Part shown: positions 12,857 to 24,273 of the stretch, piece by piece
Numbering within the stretch: the first letter of the stretch is position 1
How the letters are laid out: the number at the start of each line of letters is the position of its first letter
From: an archaeon
GTDB taxonomy: Archaea; Iainarchaeota; Iainarchaeia; Iainarchaeales; CSSED10-239
Length of the DNA: 24,273 bases
Assembly (NCBI GenBank): GCA_035387745.1
Contig: DAOOON010000005.1
Span: forward strand, 14,414 to 38,686
Reading direction: 5' to 3'
Notes under the pieces: generated by a model
Database searches by the model: none
What the model was told of the DNA's origin: nothing
What the model saw: only the letters and a program-made list of their open reading frames with translations
Made by a program: the position numbers and the translations under genes

Positions 12857-13084
12857 TTATAATAAATCTAAGAATTCATCTTTTGAAAGTCTTAAGTCCT
12901 GTTTAATTATTTTATTCAAAAGTCCTTCAGGGACGGGCTTATTAGAATGCATTGGTATAACAACTAATCTGCCATCAGAATGAGAAAATATTTTGTGAGA
13001 TCCTTTTTGCCTTATTTCTTTAAAACCCAACTTTATTATGACTTTAGTTAGCTTTAAAGAAGAAACAATAGGAAGCTCACTCAT
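12857..13084 (-). CDS. hicA: HicA-family mRNA interferase toxin
   Basis: 75 aa. KLGFKEIRQKGSHKIFSHSDGRLVVIPMH is the typical HicA (YcfA-like) dsRBD-fold signature with the catalytic GSH. 4-nt overlap with the upstream hicB. Confidence 0.85.
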   Translation of the reverse strand: MSELPIVSSLKLTKVIIKLGFKEIRQKGSHKIFSHSDGRLVVIPMHSNKPVPEGLLNKIIKQDLRLSKDEFLDLL

Positions 13085-13305
13085 AATGTAACCCTTATCA
13101 TACCTAAAACATTATTATTCAATATTTTTGATTTTTCTTCTTTTTTAACTTCTAAATATAGAGAAATTGCTTCTTTCATATTTGTAATTAATTCTTCTAC
13201 AGTATCTCCAGTAGAATAACATCCTGGCAGATTAGGAACAGAACCATAATATTGTTTAGTTTCTTTATCTTCTTCAATTAAAACATCAAAAGAGTTATTT
13301 AACAT
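13081..13305 (-). CDS. hicB: HicB-family antitoxin (UPF0150-like)
   Basis: 74 aa. YYGSVPNLPGCYSTGDTVEELITNMKEAISLYLE is the classic HicB N-terminal domain signature. AGGTGG SD upstream. Confidence 0.85.
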   Translation of the reverse strand: MLNNSFDVLIEEDKETKQYYGSVPNLPGCYSTGDTVEELITNMKEAISLYLEVKKEEKSKILNNNVLGMIRVTL

Positions 13306-13342: not shown

Positions 13343-13465
13343 TTAAAGCTTTCTTTTTCTAAAAGAAGCATAGAAATAGGAGTCGGATTCCCTCCTCCCA
13401 GATTCGGTTGGGGAGGAACGAGTTATTGGTTCATTGTTAGAAGTTGGTGGATACTTCTCTTTCAT
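13343..13465 (-). CDS. int: Putative Int(N): N-terminal fragment of an integrase gene split by integration
   Basis: Not in the ORF track (40 codons). AAGGAG, a 9-nt spacer, then ATG at 13465. Encodes MKEKYPPTSNNEPITRSSPTESGRRESDSYFYASFRKRKL*. It reads from inside the element through the left att copy into flanking DNA. Its codon phase across the repeat is identical to that of the integrase ORF at the right att copy. Confidence 0.55.
   Translation of the reverse strand: MKEKYPPTSNNEPITRSSPTESGRRESDSYFYASFRKRKL
13387..13407. repeat. Left attachment-site copy (21-bp direct repeat)
   Basis: ATTCCCTCCTCCCAGATTCGG is identical to 24219..24239 in the same orientation. Confidence 0.85.
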
Positions 13466-13509
13466 TCTTACCAACTCCTTTTAGTTTATATTAATATTCT
13501 GATTGAAAG

Positions 13510-13544
13510 CTTTTATAAAAGTGTAGCTTGTGTAGGGAGTGTAT
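13510..13544 (-). promoter_or_regulatory. Candidate int promoter/operator: palindromic TATA-like element plus three 9-bp-spaced GTGTAG repeats
   Basis: CTTTTATAAAAG (13510..13521) is a perfect palindrome about 45-55 nt upstream of the Int(N) ATG on the minus strand. GTGTAG, GTGTAG and GTGTAT start at 13521, 13530 and 13539. Confidence 0.35.
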
Positions 13545-13555
13545 ACAAACTCAAG

Positions 13556-14737
13556 TTATCTGCACACTACATTTATTATTTTTTGAATATCAGCATATTT
13601 TTCATAATCGCAAATTAATTTCCCCTTATTAAATTCAGAAGAATTACTAAACCATAAATTAACCACACCTTTAGAATAACACGCACAAATTAAAGTATAC
13701 AGTTGATTAGATTGATAATATAATTCTGATTTCTTACGATAAAGTCTATCAACATCTTTATCTCCACTGGTAAACTCTAAAGCAATAGGGGGATGAACTG
13801 TTTTTAATTTACACATATCTTCTAATTCTTCATTACTTCTTGATGCTTTATTTATATATATTTTATATTGGTCTATATCTGAAGTAAAATAATCATATAA
13901 TTTGTGTTTGTCTTTAAGTAAAGCAATTATTTCGATTAATTTCCCCCTTATACTTTTTTTAAGTTCTATTTCTTTATTATATTCATATATTTTAGTAGAT
14001 AATTTTGCTCTTTCTTCTTCTAATTTGAGTAGCTTATTTTGAGAAGGTGTGTTTTTGGAGGTGTCATAATAAAATGTATTACTACATTCTCCACGCAATT
14101 TATTTACTTGCTCATCTATTTTGTTGTATTCTTTAATATCTGGGCATTCTTCTAAGTATATAGATAAAGGAGCATAATTTGTGGTATAGAATAAATCTAT
14201 TTTTGTTATTAGTTTTTCTTTTTTTCCTTCTGTAATTGCAGGAAATATACTTTTGGAATCTTGTTCTTTAATATTATCACTTAAAGTATCCAAAACCAAT
14301 TTTATAAAATCAATAGGATATTTCTGATTTAATAAATCAAATATATCATAAAATTCATTTAAATTTAAAGTTCTATGCAAAATTATATTTTGCGCTAAAT
14401 CAAATCTATTTTTTTTAATTAGATTTTTAGCATAAAGTATTTGATTTTCATCAAATGCTCGTTTATAGTAATAAATCATATCATTTCCATTTACCAGAAT
14501 ATCTAAATCAAAAGCTTTCTTGAATTTAGTTGCTTTCAATTTATCAAATGTGTCCTTATCTGTTGCCTTAAACCAACGTTCAATTATATCTCTCGCACGT
14601 TCTTCTGAAATATCATTAGTGCTATTAAACTTTGAGATTATCAAATCAGATAAATCATTTTTCGTACAATAAGTCTTTTCTTTTATTGTTTTTTCAATAA
14701 AAGGGTATATTTCTTCTTTTGCATCCATACATTCCAC
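13556..14737 (-). CDS. Hypothetical protein (element orphan, 393 aa)
   Basis: Long ORF with no recognised motif. The tracked start is GTG inside an AGGTGG SD, so the ATG at 14728 (MDAKEE...) is the more likely start. Confidence 0.6.
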   Translation of the reverse strand: MECMDAKEEIYPFIEKTIKEKTYCTKNDLSDLIISKFNSTNDISEERARDIIERWFKATDKDTFDKLKATKFKKAFDLDILVNGNDMIYYYKRAFDENQILYAKNLIKKNRFDLAQNIILHRTLNLNEFYDIFDLLNQKYPIDFIKLVLDTLSDNIKEQDSKSIFPAITEGKKEKLITKIDLFYTTNYAPLSIYLEECPDIKEYNKIDEQVNKLRGECSNTFYYDTSKNTPSQNKLLKLEEERAKLSTKIYEYNKEIELKKSIRGKLIEIIALLKDKHKLYDYFTSDIDQYKIYINKASRSNEELEDMCKLKTVHPPIALEFTSGDKDVDRLYRKKSELYYQSNQLYTLICACYSKGVVNLWFSNSSEFNKGKLICDYEKYADIQKIINVVCR

Positions 14738-14936
14738 CTTTATTTGCTTCCAAACTACTATAAAAGTCTGGAGTATTTTTATTATTATTAAATAATTACG
14801 ACCCTAAATGCTTATAAATAGTGCGTTTTATTGGAGCGATAAACCACTCCTATGCTGTTTAAATAAGCAGTTAAAAATCGTTTAGTGCAATATTATGTAA
14901 TAATACCAGAAAACAACAAAAAGGAGAATAAGAAAT

Positions 14937-15179
14937 ATGTCAGAAAGAAAATCGATAGAAGGGACGATATTATCAATATCAAATAAAGTCAATCCAAAGG
15001 GGGTGCCATATTCAATATATAAGATTTCTACTCTTGAAGGAAAAGAGTTAGACTTGTTTCAATGGAATAACAATTTTAGATTATTGAATAAGTTATGTAG
15101 ATTTGAAATAGAATCCAATACAAAAGATAACAAAGAGTATAACTCAATAATTGAAATCAAAGAGGTGAAGAAAGAATGA
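14937..15179 (+). CDS. Small hypothetical protein (beta-rich, possibly OB-fold-like)
   Basis: 80 aa with AGGAG SD upstream. First gene of a tightly packed plus-strand operon. The OB-fold idea comes only from an alternating beta-strand pattern. Confidence 0.5.
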   Translation: MSERKSIEGTILSISNKVNPKGVPYSIYKISTLEGKELDLFQWNNNFRLLNKLCRFEIESNTKDNKEYNSIIEIKEVKKE

Positions 15180-15451
15180 AAGTATATGAACTTAAGGATA
15201 CGACCCCGTATCCTAAACTTAAACACGATAATACTGTTTTTGAATTAAAGACACAAAGCGATTTTGAACAGGCAATCTTGGACAATGATGGGGAAATTTT
15301 TATAGAAGATACTAAATGTTATCTTCTAACTAAAAATAATAGGTGTTATGTATTGTTTTACAAAGATAAAGGACCAATAGTAAGAATGTTGAAAGATAGA
15401 ATGGATGGGGGGAACAGCAATGACAACAATAGAAGAAATATTAGCAAGTAA
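15176..15451 (+). CDS. Small hypothetical protein
   Basis: 91 aa with GAGGTG SD. ATGA overlap with the preceding gene, and it overlaps the start of the next gene. Confidence 0.5.
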   Translation: MKVYELKDTTPYPKLKHDNTVFELKTQSDFEQAILDNDGEIFIEDTKCYLLTKNNRCYVLFYKDKGPIVRMLKDRMDGGNSNDNNRRNISK

Positions 15452-16982
15452 TCCTACTCAGTATTCTAATTTATCTATGGGAATCAAAGATGGTTTATTC
15501 TATTATGGTAAAATGGTTGAACATAAAGGACAACTATTAGAGATGATGGTCTTGTCTAATAGACAACTCTTAACTAATTACAGTAGTTTAAACACAAAAA
15601 CAGATAAAAGACCTAATGAAATAAATAATTTTGGTATATTCTATCAAGATTTACCAATAAACATTGCCAATAACGACTGGTCCAACGATAGCATTACCAA
15701 ATTTATTAGTTCTAATAATAAATTAATGAACAAAAAAGAAGTTTACAATAAAGTAAAAGAACAGATAACTAAATATATGGATTTATATGATGAAAGAATA
15801 AGTTCTATGGTTGCTTGTTGGTGTATGGGCACATATATCTATAATCTATTTTCAGGATATGGGTATATACTGCTTACAAGCCAGAAGGATTCAGGAAAAA
15901 GTAAATTACTAAAAATCATTGGACAACTTTCAAGAAATAGTATCTATCTAAGTTCTCCAAGCGAGTCTGTTTTATTTAGAATGATAAATGGAAATAGACC
16001 TACTTTACTTCTTGATGATTTTGAAACATTAAAGAACGAAGAAAGAACACACTATATCTTGCAAATACTTAAGATTGGTATAGATGAAGATGGGGCAATT
16101 CCAAGAAATGAAAAGTATAAGGATACTTTTGTTCCAAAAAACTATAATTGTTTTTGTCCTAAAGCATTAACAAATACTTGCTCTCTTGACCCTATTACCA
16201 TAAGTCGTTGTATAACTATTAATTTACTTCCAACGAATACAGAAAAGGGTAAACTAAAACCAAATAAAAGAGATTTAATCTGGCAAGAAATAAGAGATGA
16301 TTTGCATATATTGATAATGGAGAATTATCAAGAAATAATTGATATATACAATAACGAATCTTTTGGAGACTTTAATTCAAGACAATTAGATACCACTAAA
16401 GGATTGTTATCTATTGCAAAGTTTATTGATGATTCAGTTTATCAAGAAGTTTCTGAATTTCTAAAAGAATCTTTTAAAGATAGAGACCTACAAGACCTCA
16501 GTTCAGATTGGGAATACTTATTATTTAAGCAACTTTATGAAAAAGTGCCAAGTCCAAGATGGTGTTCTACAAAAGAGATGAATGAATGGTTAAAAGAGGT
16601 CGCAATTCCTACAGATTATAATAAAGGATTTAATCAATATATTGGTTTTGTTTTGAGTAAATTATCTTCATTATTCCCAAAACAAAGACATAATGATGGA
16701 ATTATGTATTTGATATCTCCAAAAAGTGTCCAAGAATATATGAGTTTAAAGAAGTATCCTTGCACCTTAGAGGGTTCACAGGATACACAACCTACACTTG
16801 ATTTCAAAGATGAACCATTTAGGGAATTAAAAAATGAAATTATGGATACTTGTGTAAATTGTAATCAAAGAACCTACGTTAAATATACTTCTAAAGTAGT
16901 AAAGGGTAGAAACATTTGTGAAGACTGTGTAAAGAGTGAAGCCAAAAGGAAGGGTAAAGAACTATTAGATAGTATGTATTGA
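15405..16982 (+). CDS. P-loop NTPase, DUF3631-like; putative element replication/helicase-type ATPase with C-terminal zinc ribbon
   Basis: Walker A-like SQKDSGKSK, then SPSESVLFRMINGNRPTLLLDDFE (Walker B-like). The layout recalls DUF3631/SF3-type ATPases of integrative elements. C-terminal CVNC-x20-CEDC. The likely true start is the ATG at 15420 (MTTIEE...), preceded by a GGGGGG SD. Confidence 0.55.
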   Translation: MGGTAMTTIEEILASNPTQYSNLSMGIKDGLFYYGKMVEHKGQLLEMMVLSNRQLLTNYSSLNTKTDKRPNEINNFGIFYQDLPINIANNDWSNDSITKFISSNNKLMNKKEVYNKVKEQITKYMDLYDERISSMVACWCMGTYIYNLFSGYGYILLTSQKDSGKSKLLKIIGQLSRNSIYLSSPSESVLFRMINGNRPTLLLDDFETLKNEERTHYILQILKIGIDEDGAIPRNEKYKDTFVPKNYNCFCPKALTNTCSLDPITISRCITINLLPTNTEKGKLKPNKRDLIWQEIRDDLHILIMENYQEIIDIYNNESFGDFNSRQLDTTKGLLSIAKFIDDSVYQEVSEFLKESFKDRDLQDLSSDWEYLLFKQLYEKVPSPRWCSTKEMNEWLKEVAIPTDYNKGFNQYIGFVLSKLSSLFPKQRHNDGIMYLISPKSVQEYMSLKKYPCTLEGSQDTQPTLDFKDEPFRELKNEIMDTCVNCNQRTYVKYTSKVVKGRNICEDCVKSEAKRKGKELLDSMY

Positions 16983-17011
16983 TTTTTCAAAAACGAACTT
17001 AGGAGATTAAT

Positions 17012-17446
17012 ATGGCAAGTACAAAAGAAGGTAAAGAGATAAGCAAGATGAATGCTGTAAAAAATGGGTTATACTTAAAGTTTACAGACTTTTTTCCCTG
17101 TAATTTATGTATTAACAGAGAGAAATGTTCTGATTTTATTCCTGGAGGTTCTTGCTCTATTGATTCTGAATTGTTCAATCAATTAGTTACTACTGAGATA
17201 GATGAATTAAAAGTATTAGACCAATTGATTAACTACAATATGGTTAGACTATCAAGAGCAACAGAACAATCAAGAAACAGACCAGACCATATCGAATTAA
17301 GTAGGATATCTGCAGAAATAAGAAATCTTATTCAAGCAAGGTTTATAATAAAAAGAAGGATAGAAGGTGAAAAAGAATATGCACGAACTAAAGTATTGCA
17401 ACCAATGTCCGACCAGAGCCAATTGCATTTATTTCAAGAAAAATAA
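17012..17446 (+). CDS. Hypothetical 4-Cys protein (paralogous motif with the next gene)
   Basis: AGGAG SD. Contains CNLCINREKCSDFIPGGSCSID, i.e. CNxCxxRxxCxxFx5CxxD. Confidence 0.55.
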   Translation: MASTKEGKEISKMNAVKNGLYLKFTDFFPCNLCINREKCSDFIPGGSCSIDSELFNQLVTTEIDELKVLDQLINYNMVRLSRATEQSRNRPDHIELSRISAEIRNLIQARFIIKRRIEGEKEYARTKVLQPMSDQSQLHLFQEK

Positions 17447-17669
17447 TTTCTGTGAAAGAGACCAAATGATTAGTGAAGACATTTATGGATTCAAAAAAAC
17501 CAGCATAGACAAATGGTATTCTTTAGTTAATTTAGATAGAACTGAAGATAAAAATAAAGCCAAATTCTATAAGATGGTCAATAAAGAAGTAAAAGAACTT
17601 ATACAAGATATACAAGAGCAGATAGCAGAAGAAAAAGAAAACGAGGATGAAAAAAATGCAAGACTTTAA
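17367..17669 (+). CDS. Hypothetical 4-Cys protein overlapping the previous gene out of frame
   Basis: The tracked start is GTG. The ATG at 17379 sits 8-10 nt after AAGGTGA and is the likelier start. Contains CNQCPTRANCIYFKKNNFCERD, the same CNxCxxRxxCxxFx5CxxD spacing as 17012..17446. Confidence 0.5.
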   Translation: MKKNMHELKYCNQCPTRANCIYFKKNNFCERDQMISEDIYGFKKTSIDKWYSLVNLDRTEDKNKAKFYKMVNKEVKELIQDIQEQIAEEKENEDEKNARL

Positions 17670-18006
17670 AAAATTAAAAATTTGGCAGTTAGGAAGAGAG
17701 TTTACTAAAGATATTTATGATATTACAGAACACTTCCCAAAACACGAGTTTCATTCAATGACCAACCAGCTCAGAAGAGCATCTTACTCAATACCTTCGA
17801 ACATTGCTGAAGGTTGTGGGAAAAGTAGTCAAAAAGAATTTGGAAGATATCTTTCTATTGTTAGTGGGTCGATAAAAGAATGTGAATGCTTTCTTATTCT
17901 TTCAAAAGACTTAGAATATATAACTAACAAAGAATTTAATGAATTAAATGGAAAATTAGAAATAATTGGAAAGATGTGTAATAAACTATTAATAAAAATA
18001 AATTAA
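17647..18006 (+). CDS. Four-helix-bundle protein (23S rRNA intervening-sequence protein / Avd-like family)
   Basis: KIWQLGREFTKDIYDIT..FPKHEFHSMTNQLRRASYSIPSNIAEGCGKSSQKEFGRYLSIVSGSIKECECFL is the characteristic signature of this family. The start may be the ATG at 17656 (GAGGA SD 9 nt upstream). Confidence 0.8.
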   Translation: MKKMQDFKKLKIWQLGREFTKDIYDITEHFPKHEFHSMTNQLRRASYSIPSNIAEGCGKSSQKEFGRYLSIVSGSIKECECFLILSKDLEYITNKEFNELNGKLEIIGKMCNKLLIKIN

Positions 18007-18359
18007 CTATTTACATATTGTTTTATATAAGTATAATCTGATTTTATTTTGCCAAATTCTTTATCTGCATTTTTCCAATCTGGTGGGCAATATCGGTATG
18101 ATTCGCTTATTGTTCTTAAATGTCTATATGCTTTATAGATTTGATTAGCATTTTTACAAATAAATTCTTCTCTTTCTGGATGAGTTCCTGGCTTTTGTAA
18201 ATTAGGAAATTTATTAAGCACAAAAAAATTTACCCAATGGACTGCAGAATAAAACAAAATTATTGATGACCAAGCCTTACAATTAGATTCGGAATCTTTA
18301 GCAATTTGTTCATTGTGTTTTGCAAGGTCTGAAAAATCATATTTATTCAATATTATCAC
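18003..18359 (-). CDS. Small helical protein, HEPN-like (tentative); third gene of a 3-gene cassette
   Basis: 118 aa. The GTG start overlaps the upstream stop (TAGTG). The layout ...ILFYSAVHWVNFFV...KPGTHPEREEF...ISESYRYCPPD resembles classical HEPN domains (TH loop and Y..RYP C-terminal motif). A clean Rx4-6H motif is not present. Confidence 0.4.
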   Translation of the reverse strand: MIILNKYDFSDLAKHNEQIAKDSESNCKAWSSIILFYSAVHWVNFFVLNKFPNLQKPGTHPEREEFICKNANQIYKAYRHLRTISESYRYCPPDWKNADKEFGKIKSDYTYIKQYVNS

Positions 18360-18730
18360 TATTTAATTAGTGCTTTCGCATTTTCTGAAATTTGGTGTAT
18401 AAAATAAGAGTTATCCGAAAAAACATTAAATTCAAATTTTATTTTTTCGTCTTTAAATCTTTCCCTTAATTCTAATTCTAAGTCATAAATCTTATCTCTA
18501 CTATCATAATCGTTTGGGTCAATTAATGTCCAAAATCTAATTACATTTCTATCATTCATAACATACAATTTTTTTACAAATGGTAATGAACTAACTAAAT
18601 GAAAATAAAATTTAATTGCATATACCTTTGTAATAATAGTAATTGGATTATATAATTGTTTATTTATCCCAATATAACACTCATCTATTAATCCCAAAGT
18701 ATTTGTGTTTGCTTGTTTATTAATATACAT
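18359..18730 (-). CDS. Small alpha/beta protein, possibly a degenerate minimal-nucleotidyltransferase-like partner; second gene of the cassette
   Basis: 123 aa. KKLYVMNDRNVIRFWTLIDPNDYDSRDKIYDLELELRERF..IKFEFNVF has the strand-helix-strand pattern of MNT-type antitoxins. It lacks the GS...DxD catalytic signature. Confidence 0.35.
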   Translation of the reverse strand: MYINKQANTNTLGLIDECYIGINKQLYNPITIITKVYAIKFYFHLVSSLPFVKKLYVMNDRNVIRFWTLIDPNDYDSRDKIYDLELELRERFKDEKIKFEFNVFSDNSYFIHQISENAKALIK

Positions 18731-18737
18731 ATAATCC

Positions 18738-19103
18738 CTATTTTGTTTGTGCTTTCAAATCTAATGTTTTTATTTGTTCAGATATTTTTACTAAATTCTC
18801 TGATGCTAATTTAAGTTTATCTGCATAATCTTTTTTCTCAGATAATGACAAATTAAGTAAGTTCTTATCAATAGTAGCCATCTTTAAATTGAAAATTAAA
18901 TCTTTATATATCTCTGAAAGTTCTGGAGAATCGTTTTTTATTAGTGAAATTAATAATTCTTCATCATTTAATACTTCGCTCATTTTCTTAAGCTTTTCAG
19001 AATCATTAGATTCTAATATATAAACTTCATTAATAAAGCTACTAATTATTTTTAATAATTTAGAATATGCAGTAATAAAATCAATAAGTATTTCTTTGTC
19101 CAT
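18738..19103 (-). CDS. Small all-helical hypothetical protein; first gene of the cassette
   Basis: 121 aa with an ATG start, preceded by a TATA-rich 160-bp gap. Its stop lies 7 nt before the next gene's start. Confidence 0.45.
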   Translation of the reverse strand: MDKEILIDFITAYSKLLKIISSFINEVYILESNDSEKLKKMSEVLNDEELLISLIKNDSPELSEIYKDLIFNLKMATIDKNLLNLSLSEKKDYADKLKLASENLVKISEQIKTLDLKAQTK

Positions 19104-19264
19104 ATGTAATCTATATAGTTATTAAATAAGTTAATAAATATAACTATTTTTAAAGGCAATTTACCCCTACTATATATATAGTATATATAGAAAAATATAT
19201 AAATAGAAAATTAACACATTATAATTTACTTTCATAACTCTGAGTTATAATACCCATTATATAA

Positions 19265-21733
19265 TCAATATCTAAATAATTTATTTGCACTTTCAACTAA
19301 ATCAATTTTTCTTCTATCCAATTCCAATATTTCATTTATCTTTTTAGTATTTTCATCAATAATCCTTTGGTCAAATAATGGGATTTCTATGTCTTTTAAA
19401 CGCTCTAAGTTTAAATGAGGAATTGTTGATGCTATTACTGTTCTTCTTAAAGATTGATATAGTCCAATTTCTTTAGTAATTAACACCGAAAAGATATATT
19501 CTGGAGTTATTGTAAGTTTGTATTTTTCTTTAATATAAGATATACAACTTTTCTTTAATCTACATTTTAAAATTCCTGAAGAAATTAAGAAATTAGTATT
19601 TGTAGAAGCAATTGCAAACATCCCTATTTTCCCATCTTTAGTAAACAATATATCTTTTTCCTTTATTTCGAAATTTATTTGATTAAATAAATCTTTAGAA
19701 AGATATAAATCAGCAGTTCTATTAATTGTATAATTTACTAAATCTGAGGTTCTAATAAATGGAATATCTGTTTCTTTTTTAAAGATATATTCAATATAAT
19801 TATCACTGCCAATTTCGATACCTTTTTTAAAATCAAATAGTTCTCCAAGAGTAATTGTTGGAATCCCCTTAGATTTCAAATTTTGAATTGGATATATATA
19901 TCTTGGGAATAAATATTTAGGAATCCATAAATCATAATCTTTTATTTGAGAGAATGTAATATTAAAGTAGCTATCTTTTGATTTATATTTTTTAGGTTCT
20001 TTTTTCCAAAGTTTATATTCCTCTGATACATTCTTTATGTCGTCGATTTCATTTTCTTTGCCTCTTCTATCGTGCCCACAATTTTCTATAACTGACATAA
20101 ATATGGGGTAATCTTTTGGAATTTTATTTAATGGTTGCTTCTCTAATATTAAAATTGTTGTTTTGGTAGAGGTATTTGGCATAAATGTTTCCAATGGAAC
20201 ATCAATTATAGCATTTATTTTTGTGTGTTCACAAATATATTGCCTCACATAACCTAAGCTTTCATTACCGAATATTCCATCAGGTAATACAATCGCCATT
20301 TGTCCTCCATCCTTAAGTAATTGCAAACATCTCTCCACAAAAAGTATTTGAGGTGCTTCTTTATCTTTTAATTTACCGATTTCCCACTTATTATTTAATT
20401 TCCATTTGTGACCTAATGCATATTGTTTTAATTTATCTTCTCCACGAACAGGAATCTTACTTCCAAATGGTGGATTAGTTAAAAGAATACTAAAATCCCC
20501 CAAATGAACTTTTGTTTTTGTGGTGGTATTCCAATGATTTGGATTTTCTAAACTATCTTCACAGAATATTCCACTTTTACCATCTCCAATTATTGCCATA
20601 TATGCTTTTGCAACTTTCGATAAAAAATAGTCCTTATCTATTCCTCTTATTCTATTAAGTGCAACTTCCATTTTTTCTTCTTGAAGATTATTTTTATTCC
20701 AATGATACTTTTCTCCTTCAGCATCTAATTTCTTCCAAACGTGTCTTAAAGATTCTATCAAAAAGCCACCACTTCCACAAGCGGGGTCTATGATTAAATC
20801 TTCATCATTCGGGTCTAAGATATCTACCATCATTTTTACTACATTACGTGGAGTGAAGAATTGACCTTGCCCTCCTTTTAATGCGTGCCCAATAAATGTT
20901 TCAAAAGCATCTGCAATTATATCTCTCTCTGCTTCAATAAGACAATAATTCTGTAACTCTCCTACTACATAAGCAACAGAATTAGAATCTAATGTTATTG
21001 TATCGTTATCATCCAATACTTCTTTATATTTTCTTTTTACCTTATTAAATAAATCTAAAATTCTTTTTTTAACGGTTTCTGTATCTTCATCCACTCCTGC
21101 TCTAAATGTGACAATTTCATTAGGTTCTGTAAATCTTTCATCATAAATTTTACAGAAAATCAAATTAATAAGTTGCTGAGCCAATACTTCATCTCTTGTT
21201 GCTCCAATGGTATTAGCAAATAAATGATTTCTTATTGCTTTAAATGTTGCTTTTAAGTTGTGAGTGGGCTTTAAATCTTTACGTTTAAATCTACCTATAT
21301 CTTCAATTCTTTGTCCATATCGAGGAATATTGGGTATTTCTTCAAATTCAATTTTACCTGATTTTTCAATTTTTCTTAAAAATAATCTTTCGTCTCCATT
21401 AAACCAAACTCCAAGATATGCTTTAGAGAATCTTAAATAATCTTGAAGCTGAGTTTTCCCATCTTTTCTATTTTTTTTCTTACACTCTACAATAATATAA
21501 ATTTCATCTTCTTGTTTTTTACTATTTGGGAAAATTGCAATATCTATGGGATATTCTTTTTTTGTATCTGATGGTCTAATTTTCACTCTAAATTGTGGTC
21601 TGGTTTGGATATTTACTTTGGGATACCCATAATCTTCAACCAATTGTTTAGAAAATGTTTGTACCGCATCTATTTCTTCTGGTGTTGCTTTAACTTTTAT
21701 CCCTGAAATATAATCCTCTATATATTCTGCCAT
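19265..21733 (-). CDS. Fused restriction-modification enzyme: PD-(D/E)xK nuclease-like N-domain + gamma-class N6-adenine DNA methyltransferase + single HsdS-like target-recognition domain (Type IIG/IIB-like)
   Basis: N-terminal PIDIAIF...IYIIVECKKK (D...ExK, HsdR-N-like). FFTPRNVVKMMVDIL, IIDPACGSGGFL (motif I) and LTNPPFG (motif IV). C-terminal ~240 aa with TLGELFDFKKGIEIGS, typical of specificity-subunit TRDs. Confidence 0.8.
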   Translation of the reverse strand: MAEYIEDYISGIKVKATPEEIDAVQTFSKQLVEDYGYPKVNIQTRPQFRVKIRPSDTKKEYPIDIAIFPNSKKQEDEIYIIVECKKKNRKDGKTQLQDYLRFSKAYLGVWFNGDERLFLRKIEKSGKIEFEEIPNIPRYGQRIEDIGRFKRKDLKPTHNLKATFKAIRNHLFANTIGATRDEVLAQQLINLIFCKIYDERFTEPNEIVTFRAGVDEDTETVKKRILDLFNKVKRKYKEVLDDNDTITLDSNSVAYVVGELQNYCLIEAERDIIADAFETFIGHALKGGQGQFFTPRNVVKMMVDILDPNDEDLIIDPACGSGGFLIESLRHVWKKLDAEGEKYHWNKNNLQEEKMEVALNRIRGIDKDYFLSKVAKAYMAIIGDGKSGIFCEDSLENPNHWNTTTKTKVHLGDFSILLTNPPFGSKIPVRGEDKLKQYALGHKWKLNNKWEIGKLKDKEAPQILFVERCLQLLKDGGQMAIVLPDGIFGNESLGYVRQYICEHTKINAIIDVPLETFMPNTSTKTTILILEKQPLNKIPKDYPIFMSVIENCGHDRRGKENEIDDIKNVSEEYKLWKKEPKKYKSKDSYFNITFSQIKDYDLWIPKYLFPRYIYPIQNLKSKGIPTITLGELFDFKKGIEIGSDNYIEYIFKKETDIPFIRTSDLVNYTINRTADLYLSKDLFNQINFEIKEKDILFTKDGKIGMFAIASTNTNFLISSGILKCRLKKSCISYIKEKYKLTITPEYIFSVLITKEIGLYQSLRRTVIASTIPHLNLERLKDIEIPLFDQRIIDENTKKINEILELDRRKIDLVESANKLFRY

Positions 21734-21788
21734 TCATTCATCCCCATATTAAAATTATACTATATTATAGAACAAAAGAGAATAAAAA

Positions 21789-21806
21789 GGTAACCATTTG
21801 GTAACC
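21789..21806. promoter_or_regulatory. Candidate operator: GGTAACC x2 at 11-bp spacing in the divergent RM / wHTH intergenic region
   Basis: GGTAACC at 21789..21795 and 21800..21806. The 20-mer AGGTAACCATTTGGTAACCT is also a near-palindrome (8 of 10 half-site positions match). Confidence 0.4.
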
Positions 21807-21859
21807 TAATTTGAACTTGATTTCTTAAAATAAAACAATCTTATTCTATAGGTATTGCT

Positions 21860-22135
21860 ATGAAAAAAGACATTGCAGAATTAGTATCTTTTATTGTAAG
21901 AGGGTCTAATAGAATAATTATACTTAATTGTTTAGCTTTAGAAGAACTAACGCCTTCTCAAATAAAAAAGAAAACAAACCTATATCTTAGTCATATCTCA
22001 AGAGTTATACAAGAGCTTTTGGATAGAAAACTAATTATTTGTATTAATCCAGATTCTCCGATGGTTAAATTTTATGCTATAACTAAAAAAGGTAAAACTA
22101 TTATAGAATTAGTGAGGAAATATAAAAAAGAGTAG
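21860..22135 (+). CDS. Winged helix-turn-helix transcriptional regulator (ArsR/MarR-like small archaeal-type wHTH)
   Basis: 91 aa. LTPSQIKKKTNLYLSHISRVIQELLDRKLI (HTH) followed by KFYAITKKGK (wing). Divergent from the RM gene. Confidence 0.7.
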   Translation: MKKDIAELVSFIVRGSNRIIILNCLALEELTPSQIKKKTNLYLSHISRVIQELLDRKLIICINPDSPMVKFYAITKKGKTIIELVRKYKKE

Positions 22136-22139
22136 GATA

Positions 22140-23156
22140 TTACTTAGAAGTAGTATGCATTTTTAGTTTTTGTATCTCTAATAAATATTCTATTGTAGAT
22201 TCCACATATGAAAAATATAATTTTAACACATTATAATCTATGTCTTCTTCTTGTTTATGGTCTTTATCCTTTAGTTTCTTGTATATTCTGGTATATACTA
22301 AATATTCAATTGTGCTTTCTATCTCTTGAGAAATTATCATTTTCTTTTGAATCTTCCTCATATTATCTTCAGGTTTATGTAATCCACAAGACTCATCTGT
22401 TGTTTTCTTGGAAAACTCTTCAAAAAAATGTTCTATTACTCCAATTAATTTGTGTATGGTCTTTTCTTTATCCCCCATTTCTAAATATCTATAGCCTTCT
22501 ATTAAAAGTTCAGACACTTTTTCATATCCATATTCTGATAATTTATTAGAAATTGGAACATTAATATAATATTCTAATGATTTTGGTTCGGAAATAACTG
22601 TAGTTGAAATTATAGTTGATAATTCATTTAAAAATTTAATATTCTCAAATAATATTTTAGAATACTCGAAATTAGATATATCTGATTTACGATTTAATTG
22701 AGTAATTTGAAAATAAATTACTGGCATTGATATGACTTCTATTATTATCCTGGATTCTTTACTATCCCACTTAAAAAGTAAATCAATATTATATGGCAAT
22801 TCAGCTCTTATACCTTTTAACCAATTATAATATAGTTTTTGTTCATCAGATATGGTTTTTACTTTTAATAAAGATTTAAGTTTATATTTCAAATCTGGAG
22901 TATATACTCTTTTCATACTATAATGTATAACTGTAGAGAATAACTTGGGATTAGAATGGATTTTGCTATAACTATGTTCTAAAACATCTACCATAGTAAT
23001 ATCATCAGTAAGATAACCCACTTTTTCCATATAATTCTTTAATTCTAATTGAATTCCATTATATAATTCTGCAAATTTTTGGTCAGAAGTATCTTTACAA
23101 GGATATCCAAAGATTCCTTTAACTATAAGGTTATTTACATTTACCATATTTATCAC
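22140..23156 (-). CDS. Hypothetical protein (element orphan, 338 aa)
   Basis: Long ORF with no recognised catalytic motif. Mixed N-terminal domain and helical C-terminal third. The tracked start is GTG, with an alternative ATG at 23147. Confidence 0.6.
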   Translation of the reverse strand: MINMVNVNNLIVKGIFGYPCKDTSDQKFAELYNGIQLELKNYMEKVGYLTDDITMVDVLEHSYSKIHSNPKLFSTVIHYSMKRVYTPDLKYKLKSLLKVKTISDEQKLYYNWLKGIRAELPYNIDLLFKWDSKESRIIIEVISMPVIYFQITQLNRKSDISNFEYSKILFENIKFLNELSTIISTTVISEPKSLEYYINVPISNKLSEYGYEKVSELLIEGYRYLEMGDKEKTIHKLIGVIEHFFEEFSKKTTDESCGLHKPEDNMRKIQKKMIISQEIESTIEYLVYTRIYKKLKDKDHKQEEDIDYNVLKLYFSYVESTIEYLLEIQKLKMHTTSK

Positions 23157-23211
23157 TAAATATATATTAATATCGTAAATTTATTAAATAGATTATTAAA
23201 GACAAACTAAA

Positions 23212-24201
23212 TCATACAATCCCTCCAAGATTTAATATAGCACTATCTAAATCTCTTCCACTTAAGTGAACATATCTACTTGCCATATCACTGGCTTGTG
23301 TCCATCCAAAGAATTGTTTTAATTGTGCTTCTGTTAAATGGTTTGCAAGGTATGTTGCTCTGCTGTGCCTGAAAAGATGAGGATTTGATTTTTTTTCTAT
23401 ATTGCTTTTCTTGAAAGTTTCATTAAGTGTCTTTCTTACTACAGAATAACTTGGTATTTCTTTTGGTCCTCTGCCTTGTTGATTTCTCCTTATCATCTTA
23501 CACCATACATTGCTTTCACTGTCTTCACCAAATGGATGTTCTTTTATCCATTCTTTAAGATAGGGAACTGATTTGATTATTGGAATTCTTCTTTGTCCCG
23601 TTTTTCCATTAACTAAAATAGAGGATATCTTTTCTCCAAAGGTTATGTGCTTAATTTTAAGTGTAAGCATCTCTCCAATTCTTGCTCCTGACTCATACAA
23701 TAAGTAAATAAATGCTTTGTCTCTTGTAAACTTTGCAGTAGCAACTAATTTCAAAACTTCTTCTTCGGTCAATAACTCTTCAGGTAAAATATTACTTTTA
23801 GAATCCTTAACTTTAATCCAAGAAACAATCTTTGGAGCAGTTTCATCATCTCCAAGTAGCCACTTATAGAATCTCTTTAGAATTATCTTATAGTCTGATT
23901 TAGTCCAAAAAGCATAGTCTCTTTGCTCAATAGTAAACATCAAATATTCAATATCTTGCTTTGTGGCTATAGCAAAAGGTATTTGTATTACATTAGACAT
24001 ATCTCTAAGCATATAGATAGACTTAGATAGTCTAATTGACTTAATTCCTTGAGCTTTCATAGATATAACATAGTCAAGTATTGCATTTCTGTTCTCTTCA
24101 ACAACCTCTAAATTGTTTTGTAGAGTAAAAATAGCTCTGCTTAGTCTGTGTTCAGTCCTGTATATGTCGTCGGGACCACTTACATTACAAACTTCTAACA
24201 A
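23212..24201 (-). CDS. int: Tyrosine recombinase/integrase, catalytic (Int(C)) portion; ORF stays open upstream to 24255 through the att repeat
   Basis: ESGARIGEM (Arg I), HLFRHSRATYLA (HxxR) and MASRYVHLS (catalytic Tyr), with a SAM-like core-binding N-domain. The tracked start is a TTG with no SD, and the next in-frame Met is 47 codons in. The frame continues upstream as PVDPQSESGRRECTRKSS. Confidence 0.85.
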   Translation of the reverse strand: MLEVCNVSGPDDIYRTEHRLSRAIFTLQNNLEVVEENRNAILDYVISMKAQGIKSIRLSKSIYMLRDMSNVIQIPFAIATKQDIEYLMFTIEQRDYAFWTKSDYKIILKRFYKWLLGDDETAPKIVSWIKVKDSKSNILPEELLTEEEVLKLVATAKFTRDKAFIYLLYESGARIGEMLTLKIKHITFGEKISSILVNGKTGQRRIPIIKSVPYLKEWIKEHPFGEDSESNVWCKMIRRNQQGRGPKEIPSYSVVRKTLNETFKKSNIEKKSNPHLFRHSRATYLANHLTEAQLKQFFGWTQASDMASRYVHLSGRDLDSAILNLGGIV

Positions 24202-24218
24202 AGAACTCTTTCGAGTGC

Positions 24219-24239
24219 ATTCCCTCCTCCCAGATTCGG
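24219..24239. repeat. Right attachment-site copy (21-bp direct repeat)
   Basis: ATTCCCTCCTCCCAGATTCGG is identical to 13387..13407. It lies 18 nt upstream of the tracked integrase start. Confidence 0.85.
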
Positions 24240-24273
24240 ACTGGGGATCTACCGGTCACTGCCTTTTTCTGTC

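Follow-up and report, generated by a model that had tools for sequence, protein, structure and literature searches.

Probable splitting of an Xer-like integrase gene on integration of a 10.8-kb element into the tRNA-Tyr gene of a DPANN archaeon

Suicidal integrases are encoded by genes that are split when the element carrying them integrates. All have been assigned PF16795, and they are described as one monophyletic family of single origin, found mostly in hyperthermophilic archaea (PMC8371274). The catalytic tetrad of the SSV-type enzymes is R..KxxR..Y (PMC5861418). Known hosts are Sulfolobales, Desulfurococcales, Thermococcales, Archaeoglobales and Methanosarcinales (PMC8371274, PMC7253208). 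For elements of the SSV2, pTN3 and pT26-2 kinds, an intact copy acting in trans has been proposed as the source of Int (PMC8371274). The literature that we searched describes suicidal integrases from the SSV, pTN3 and pT26-2 families only and does not mention DPANN archaea in this connection, though a prior description may exist for DPANN mobile elements. We have analyzed a stretch of archaeal DNA of 24,273 nt (the window) that contains an integrated 10.8-kb element, in which attP probably falls within the 5' part of the element's own gene for a tyrosine integrase. A sequence-only reading of this DNA had proposed that the integrase gene is partitioned in the manner of SSV, with Int(N) and Int(C) at the two ends of the element.

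A direct repeat of 21 nt, ATTCCCTCCTCCCAGATTCGG (read on the minus strand as CCGAATCTGGGAGGAGGGAAT), occurs in two identical copies at 13387-13407 and 24219-24239. The spacing of the two copies is 10,832 bp. No third copy with three or fewer mismatches was found in the window, and none of 100 shuffled controls gave any repeat match. A segment at 13216-13236, within hicB, was considered as a third copy at 71% identity, but it fails the three-mismatch search and was taken as chance. The right-hand copy corresponds to the last 20 nt of a tRNA-Tyr(GTA) gene plus 1 nt, running on the minus strand from the T-loop to the discriminator base and one nucleotide beyond; the sequence-only reading had overlooked this. 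The 3' part of the tRNA gene occupies 24220-24273 (minus strand), comprising the last 17 nt of a 54-nt intron (24273-24257) and the 3' exon (24256-24220), and the remainder of the gene lies beyond the window end. It is found in L001 (ENA ERZ27257431), which carries the same integrated element and has 87 nt extra past the right end of the window (L001 1-87). When introns were allowed, ARAGORN placed tRNA-Tyr(GTA) at L001 12-140, with the 54-nt intron after position 38. With default settings neither ARAGORN nor Rfam reported a tRNA for the window or for L001; the gene has this intron and is cut by the window end.

Empty sites were found in nine other metagenome contigs, namely those encoding a HicB identical to the product of 13081-13305 in the flank. 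In each, the tRNA-Tyr and a single core are joined straight to 'ccgactcctatttc...hicB'. On alignment, this attB consists of the left arm of the window's right junction and the right arm of its left junction. The target is thus the 3' part of the host's tRNA gene, and on integration the core of the element restores this gene. The empty sites together with the alignment of the arms define the element, 13387-24239 including both cores (minus strand), as an insertion of 10,832 bp with exact boundaries, polymorphic within the population. The hicB gene (13081-13305, minus strand) that served as anchor for this search lies directly outside the element and is followed by hicA (12857-13084, minus strand). 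The empty sites have this toxin-antitoxin pair (12857-13305) as well, and it therefore belongs to the host side of the boundary and not to the element.

The flanking lysyl-tRNA synthetase has its best similarity to proteins labeled 'archaeon' and to those of Candidatus Diapherotrites, Woesearchaeota and Micrarchaeota, and most relatives of the integrase belong to Candidatus Iainarchaeum or to unclassified archaeal MAGs. Judged by these similarities the host is a DPANN archaeon, and the expectation that gene splitting would here extend to a new host group holds. In addition to the integrase, the element encodes a 338-aa protein of unknown function, a winged-helix (wHTH) protein, an 822-aa restriction-modification fusion, a 23S_rRNA_IVP-like protein, a 525-aa DUF5906-like protein and a 393-aa protein of unknown function. 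Ten element proteins gave no match to PHROGs. The 822-aa cargo protein (19265-21733, minus strand) resembles a single-chain restriction-modification enzyme, with HSDR_N_2 and N6_Mtase/Eco57I-like domains and one Methylase_S target-recognition domain.

The gene for the 23S_rRNA_IVP protein (a bAvd-like four-helix bundle) is common to three related elements, at 17647-18006 (plus strand) in the window, L139 2111-2464 and L140 4767-5120. It co-occurs with the wHTH gene and that of a 470-525-aa, weakly DUF5906-like protein, so that these constitute a core common to the three elements; the core has no PHROG match. L049, whose integrase is 98% identical, has the replication-side backbone in common with the window at 90% nucleotide identity. 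There, other cargo (L049 1139-7303 versus 19300-23200 in the window) replaces the 338-aa, wHTH and 822-aa restriction-modification genes. The element family is therefore modular.

The integrase is encoded on the minus strand at the right end of the element. Its frame is open from 24255, has TTG 24201 as its first start codon (329 aa) and stops at 23212. Int(C), from the att core to the stop, occupies 23212-24218 and contains the PF00589 catalytic domain. The conserved body starts at DDIY, 10 codons after the TTG. Between 24218 and DIY we found no TATA box, no Shine-Dalgarno sequence and only an unsupported TTG, so that the promoter and start of its own that a pNOB8-type gene has are absent here.

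At the left end lies the Int(N) ORF of 40 codons (13343-13465, minus strand), with its ATG at 13465-13463 and TAA at 13345-13343. In the integrated state it encodes MKEKYPPTSNNEPITRSSPTESGRRE and then a host-encoded tail, SDSYFYASFRKRKL, before the stop; codons 1-26 (13465-13388) are the element's own and the last 14 are host DNA. A Shine-Dalgarno-like AAGGAG is found at 13475-13480 (minus strand), with a 9-nt spacer to the ATG, and a TATA-box-like TTTTATAAAA at 13511-13520 (minus strand), 46 nt upstream of the ATG. Both are conserved in a variant of this region in another contig, L131. We regard TTTTATAAAA as a candidate int promoter that integration would have parted from Int(C). The Int(N) ORF reads the distal core (13387-13407, minus strand) as (T)ESGRRE and the integrase frame reads the tRNA-proximal core as (S)ESGRRE. 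The phase is the same, since the first base of both copies falls at codon position 2 (13465 - 13407 = 58; 24240 - 24239 = 1). When the halves were fused in silico they gave an ORF of 361 aa, in which MKEKYPPTSNNEPITRSSPTESGRRE is followed by CTRKSS and then LLEVCNVSGPDDIY..., and the predicted circular junction reads ...AACTCGTTCCTCCCCAACCGAATCTGGGAGGAGGGAATGCACTCGAAAGAG.... Thus the sequence-only reading was correct in its placing of the 40-codon ORF at 13465 with AAGGAG, spacer and ATG, in assigning nucleotides 13407 and 24239 both to codon position 2, and in the 361-aa fusion with a proper ATG and Shine-Dalgarno sequence.

We searched for a free circular copy of the element. Neither the exact fused 361-aa protein nor the 40-aa ORF is present in a collection of 15 billion proteins, and the attP junction is absent from IMG/VR. 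A profile of the fused N-termini gave no match among 5.8 billion proteins, and the contigs that carry the neighboring 390-aa gene include no episomal copy. The relatives in IMG/VR are two only, and distant, at 41% identity. All database copies of the integrase have been called as products of 329-330 aa.

The family of the enzyme was assessed on an alignment of 22 members. PF00589 was matched by all 22 and a SAM-like N-terminal domain (PF13495 or PF02899) by 12, and none of the 22 matched PF16795 (Phage_integr_3), even at E <= 10. In the numbering of the fused protein the catalytic residues are R206, H307xxR310 and Y342; R206, the H307 and R310 of HLFR, and Y342 are invariant. This is the canonical R..HxxR..Y tetrad and not R..KxxR..Y. 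The best PDB matches by both sequence and fold were XerA (4a8e, 5hxy), followed by XerD and XerH. SSV1 integrase was absent from the PDB sequence matches at E <= 1 and from the best 50 Foldseek matches, and there was no fusellovirus among the phage-collection matches listed or tallied by organism (15 of 37 records). Among annotated viral relatives the closest are the integrases of pleolipovirus-like proviruses of Archaeoglobales, which have 38-39% identity and the classical layout. From its PF00589 and SAM-like domains and its R..HxxR..Y tetrad the enzyme is classed as an Xer-like tyrosine recombinase. Since the tests for the SSV family failed, this is SSV-type behavior in a family outside SSV. 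The term used in the sequence-only reading is therefore apt for the behavior, the core being inside the int frame, but not for family membership.

The AlphaFold2 model made from the 22-sequence alignment has a mean pLDDT of 74. Residues 1-46 have pLDDT < 50, and the fold is confident from around residue 47. What Int(C) loses is thus only a predicted disordered tail of ~45 aa. The statement that the integrated copy cannot make full-length Int is correct, yet Int(C) keeps every conserved and folded segment, and on this model it is doubtful that the split halves are inactive.

The same property can be turned into an argument against a split gene. Everything that is conserved or folded is encoded after the TTG, and the integrase might therefore have a classical layout, as in lambda or pNOB8-type elements, starting at TTG 24201 or at another internal start with att upstream, while the 40-codon ORF is unrelated or non-functional. 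The calling of 329-330-aa products in every database copy fits such a layout. The integrase has more than 3,000 homologues, and 45 genome and 80 metagenome loci were compared. The conserved body of the homologues begins at a DDIYxxExRL motif, and the loci that we fetched have two layouts, corresponding to the closest clade (52-98% identity) and a distant sister clade (40-50% identity).

In the distant clade the tRNA ends 53-116 nt upstream, and there is often a C-terminal zinc ribbon. A TTTATAAA-like TATA box lies 23-30 nt before the gene's own ATG, which is placed 1-5 codons before DIY, and in L016, L018 and L039 the stretch from att to this ATG is interrupted by stop codons. With this arrangement the int genes of the distant clade are not split. 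These homologues speak for a classical start in the window. They begin near the body with att outside int, which makes the N-terminal extension a feature derived within a single clade. Homologues that lack the extension, a possibility raised in the sequence-only reading, thus exist among the distant relatives.

In the closest clade all elements are in tRNA-Tyr, and the open frame of the integrase takes in the 3' end of the tRNA. For 13 loci the tRNA was located independently. In all 13 the int frame is free of stops from the 3' part of the tRNA to DIY, and the other two frames have 1-10 stops each. No TATA box or Shine-Dalgarno sequence was found between att and DIY in the closest-clade loci, unlike in the sister clade. 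L061 and L072 have no start codon at all before DIY in the upstream open frame. One subclade retains an internal ATG 5-6 codons before DIY, and from this, or from the in-frame TTG 24201 in the window, a shorter Int without the N-part could be made.

The distal ends of the elements carry the most weight. Eight loci (L001, L009, L052, L056, L057, L058, L139 and L140; 52-60% Int identity) had a flank that reached the second att copy. L049 was left out, as with its different cargo the element extends past the 10-kb flank. In 8/8 an ORF of 16-37 codons that starts with ATG runs into the first distal copy in the int phase, and in the other phases this was seen in 0/16. With all distal copies included, decayed remnants among them, the counts are 12/15 in the int phase versus 1/30 in the others. 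The related loci share ancestry, and the 8/8 are therefore not eight independent trials. Several of the distal N-ORFs are preceded by SD-like sequences. Some lineages read the tRNA-Tyr segment as SGR[RG][DE] and others read it as LGGGI, and within each lineage the frames of Int(N) and Int(C) agree. Such agreement across two readings of the tRNA segment is hard to explain without translation through the core. The Int(N) ORF is accordingly conserved in related integrated copies, in position and phase, as the sequence-only reading had anticipated. The peptide itself is weakly conserved overall (28-35% identity), with a loose recurring motif (PPTSNNEP, KPLTSNN, LPTSNSS). In view of the open frame, the in-phase distal ORFs and the lack of signals before DIY, we consider a classical start with an unrelated distal ORF to be unlikely.

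The DNA encoding the N-peptide (13408-13465, minus strand, and its equivalents in L009, L052, L139 and L140) is strikingly poor in G and rich in C and A in several lineages (ccaccaacttctaacaa and ccacaaaccac are examples), and it might serve the integrase as arm-binding sites as well. On a stronger version of this, the C/A-rich DNA would be kept for its own sake, as arm-type integrase-binding sites or as the attP promoter, and the in-phase frame would be an untranslated by-product. The motifs CCACCAACTTCTAACAA and CCACAAACCAC in the G-poor DNA upstream of the distal core, common to lineages, and the predicted disorder of the N-peptide are consistent with it. But neither an ATG, nor a Shine-Dalgarno sequence, nor agreement of phase with int is needed for binding, yet all three recur. 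Moreover the Int(N) variant of L131, at the same site, differs from that of the window by four substitutions and a 3-nt indel that is in frame. We regard a role at the DNA level alone as distinctly improbable. That a small ORF crosses the repeat in phase by chance, because G+C-rich tRNA-derived sequence has few stops, deserves next to no credence: all three frames are open across the 21-nt core, but no ATG ORF is found in 29/30 out-of-phase frames against one in 12/15 in phase, and between att and DIY the two other frames are closed by their stops.

Several further features were seen at these sites. In a number of related loci the unit of a short N-ORF and att core is repeated in tandem beyond the intact element, in 2-3 copies that are 0.8-1.9 kb apart (L009 17240-19880; L057 17900-19600; L052 18650-19830; L140 7500-11260). 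Some of the copies are decayed, without ATG or with a shorter core. The copies resemble what earlier integrations would have left behind as they accumulated at the same tRNA-Tyr. L131 (1-2170; Ga0209717_1001922) has the same tRNA-Tyr/hicB site with a different insert of 1.9 kb that contains Fic and uracil-DNA-glycosylase genes. At its end this insert has the Int(N) promoter region and ORF, 95% identical to those of the window, but no Int(C), and its direct repeat is 29 nt in length, made up of the core and 8 nt of host flank.

The tRNA-Tyr genes of the compared DPANN genomes have introns of 37-123 nt after position 37/38, apart from L004 and L053, which have none. ARAGORN called Asn, Asp and His tRNAs in some relatives, and we considered a switch of target between near-identical integrases. 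However, all of these have the anticodon loop CTGTAG and the same arms, and they are therefore tRNA-Tyr genes with misplaced introns. The gene calls P0006, P0008, P0010 and P0021 begin at an ATG or GTG inside the tRNA-Tyr gene, and spurious N-termini such as MRPAVDRKIPGASPGGG are translated tRNA.

We return to the reading that we prefer, an att site within the int gene. In the circle, int would be a single transcription unit made up of the TATA-like box, AAGGAG, ATG, 19 codons, core, linker and body. The 21-nt core would be read as seven codons that mimic the 3' end of tRNA-Tyr, and a 15-codon linker and the Xer-like body would complete the 361 aa. On integration the element would recombine, inside its 21-nt core, with the 3' end of tRNA-Tyr(GTA). 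In the integrated state the tRNA is followed at once by the integrase body, which lacks a promoter, a ribosome-binding site and an ATG, and the TATA-like box, Shine-Dalgarno sequence, ATG and 26 codons end up 10.8 kb away at the other end. Since the tail is predicted to be disordered and the sister clade does without the extension, the detached part is probably dispensable. The effect of splitting is therefore probably a loss of expression signals, and not the cutting of a domain. The int gene would then be expressed from the circle and silenced after integration. For excision, Int could be supplied in trans by a co-resident intact copy. A second, more speculative route is leaky initiation of Int(C) at TTG 24201 on transcripts reading through from the tRNA gene.

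On balance we lean, with a little more than even confidence, towards a second and independent origin of self-splitting integration in this Xer-like DPANN family. The ancestors would have had attP upstream of int, and a backward extension of the frame across the tRNA-mimicking attP would have joined it to a new promoter and start codon. The split would then act as an expression switch, with int expressed only from the circle and the protein left intact. If this is true, the same architecture has arisen in an unrelated family, and the trait is convergent. The non-split sister clade and the subclade with the internal ATG would then be intermediate stages, and the loci would provide a series that shows how the architecture evolved, with att outside int, then inside it with an internal ATG, and then inside it with no internal start. 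This suggests a simpler rationale for the architecture, in which expression of int is coupled to the excised state. There are also consequences for annotation. Gene callers systematically mis-annotate such integrases, either truncating them or starting them inside the tRNA gene (as in P0006, P0008 and P0021), and the short N-ORF with its att core is a handy marker for the far boundary of an element in DPANN genomes.

How does the locus compare with known systems? The position of attP inside the int ORF and the archaeal host are as found for SSV1 and SSV2 and for the pTN3- and pT26-2-like integrases (PMC8371274, PMC7253208). As with the SSV type, integration into the 3' part of a tRNA gene puts int(N) and int(C) at opposite ends of the element, and integrated copies and remnants accumulate. 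Unlike the SSV type, the enzyme belongs to a different family of tyrosine recombinases, closest to XerA and with HxxR in place of KxxR. Its Int(N) is ~19 codons plus seven encoded by att and is predicted to be disordered, whereas in the SSV type this part is tens of residues of functional protein. The hosts also differ, being here DPANN archaea from metagenomes.

The homologous two-domain body from DIY onwards is shared with integrases of pNOB8-type layout, namely those of the sister clade, Geoglobus acetivorans pleomorphic virus 1 and Pleomorphic virus ThalV2 (the two viral ones at 38-39% identity). Like the classical integrases of archaeal mobile elements, the gene adjoins a tRNA 3' end, often that of tRNA-Tyr, and reads away from the tRNA. 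The classical genes differ in having att 53-116 nt upstream with a TATA box and their own ATG in between, so that the gene is intact after integration, and many have a C-terminal zinc ribbon. XerA (PDB 4a8e, 5hxy), the best match of solved structure, has the same core-binding and catalytic domains and R..HxxR..Y residues. It differs in being a resolvase of archaeal chromosome dimers that acts at dif sites, is not carried on a mobile element and has no tRNA neighbor, and the identity is ~20%. In the pleolipovirus SNJ2, excision restores an operon and creates an ORF across attP (orf26), but this ORF is distinct from int, lying downstream of it, and int itself stays intact; as would be the case here, circularization makes a coding sequence and a transcription unit that are missing from the integrated state (PMC13107129).
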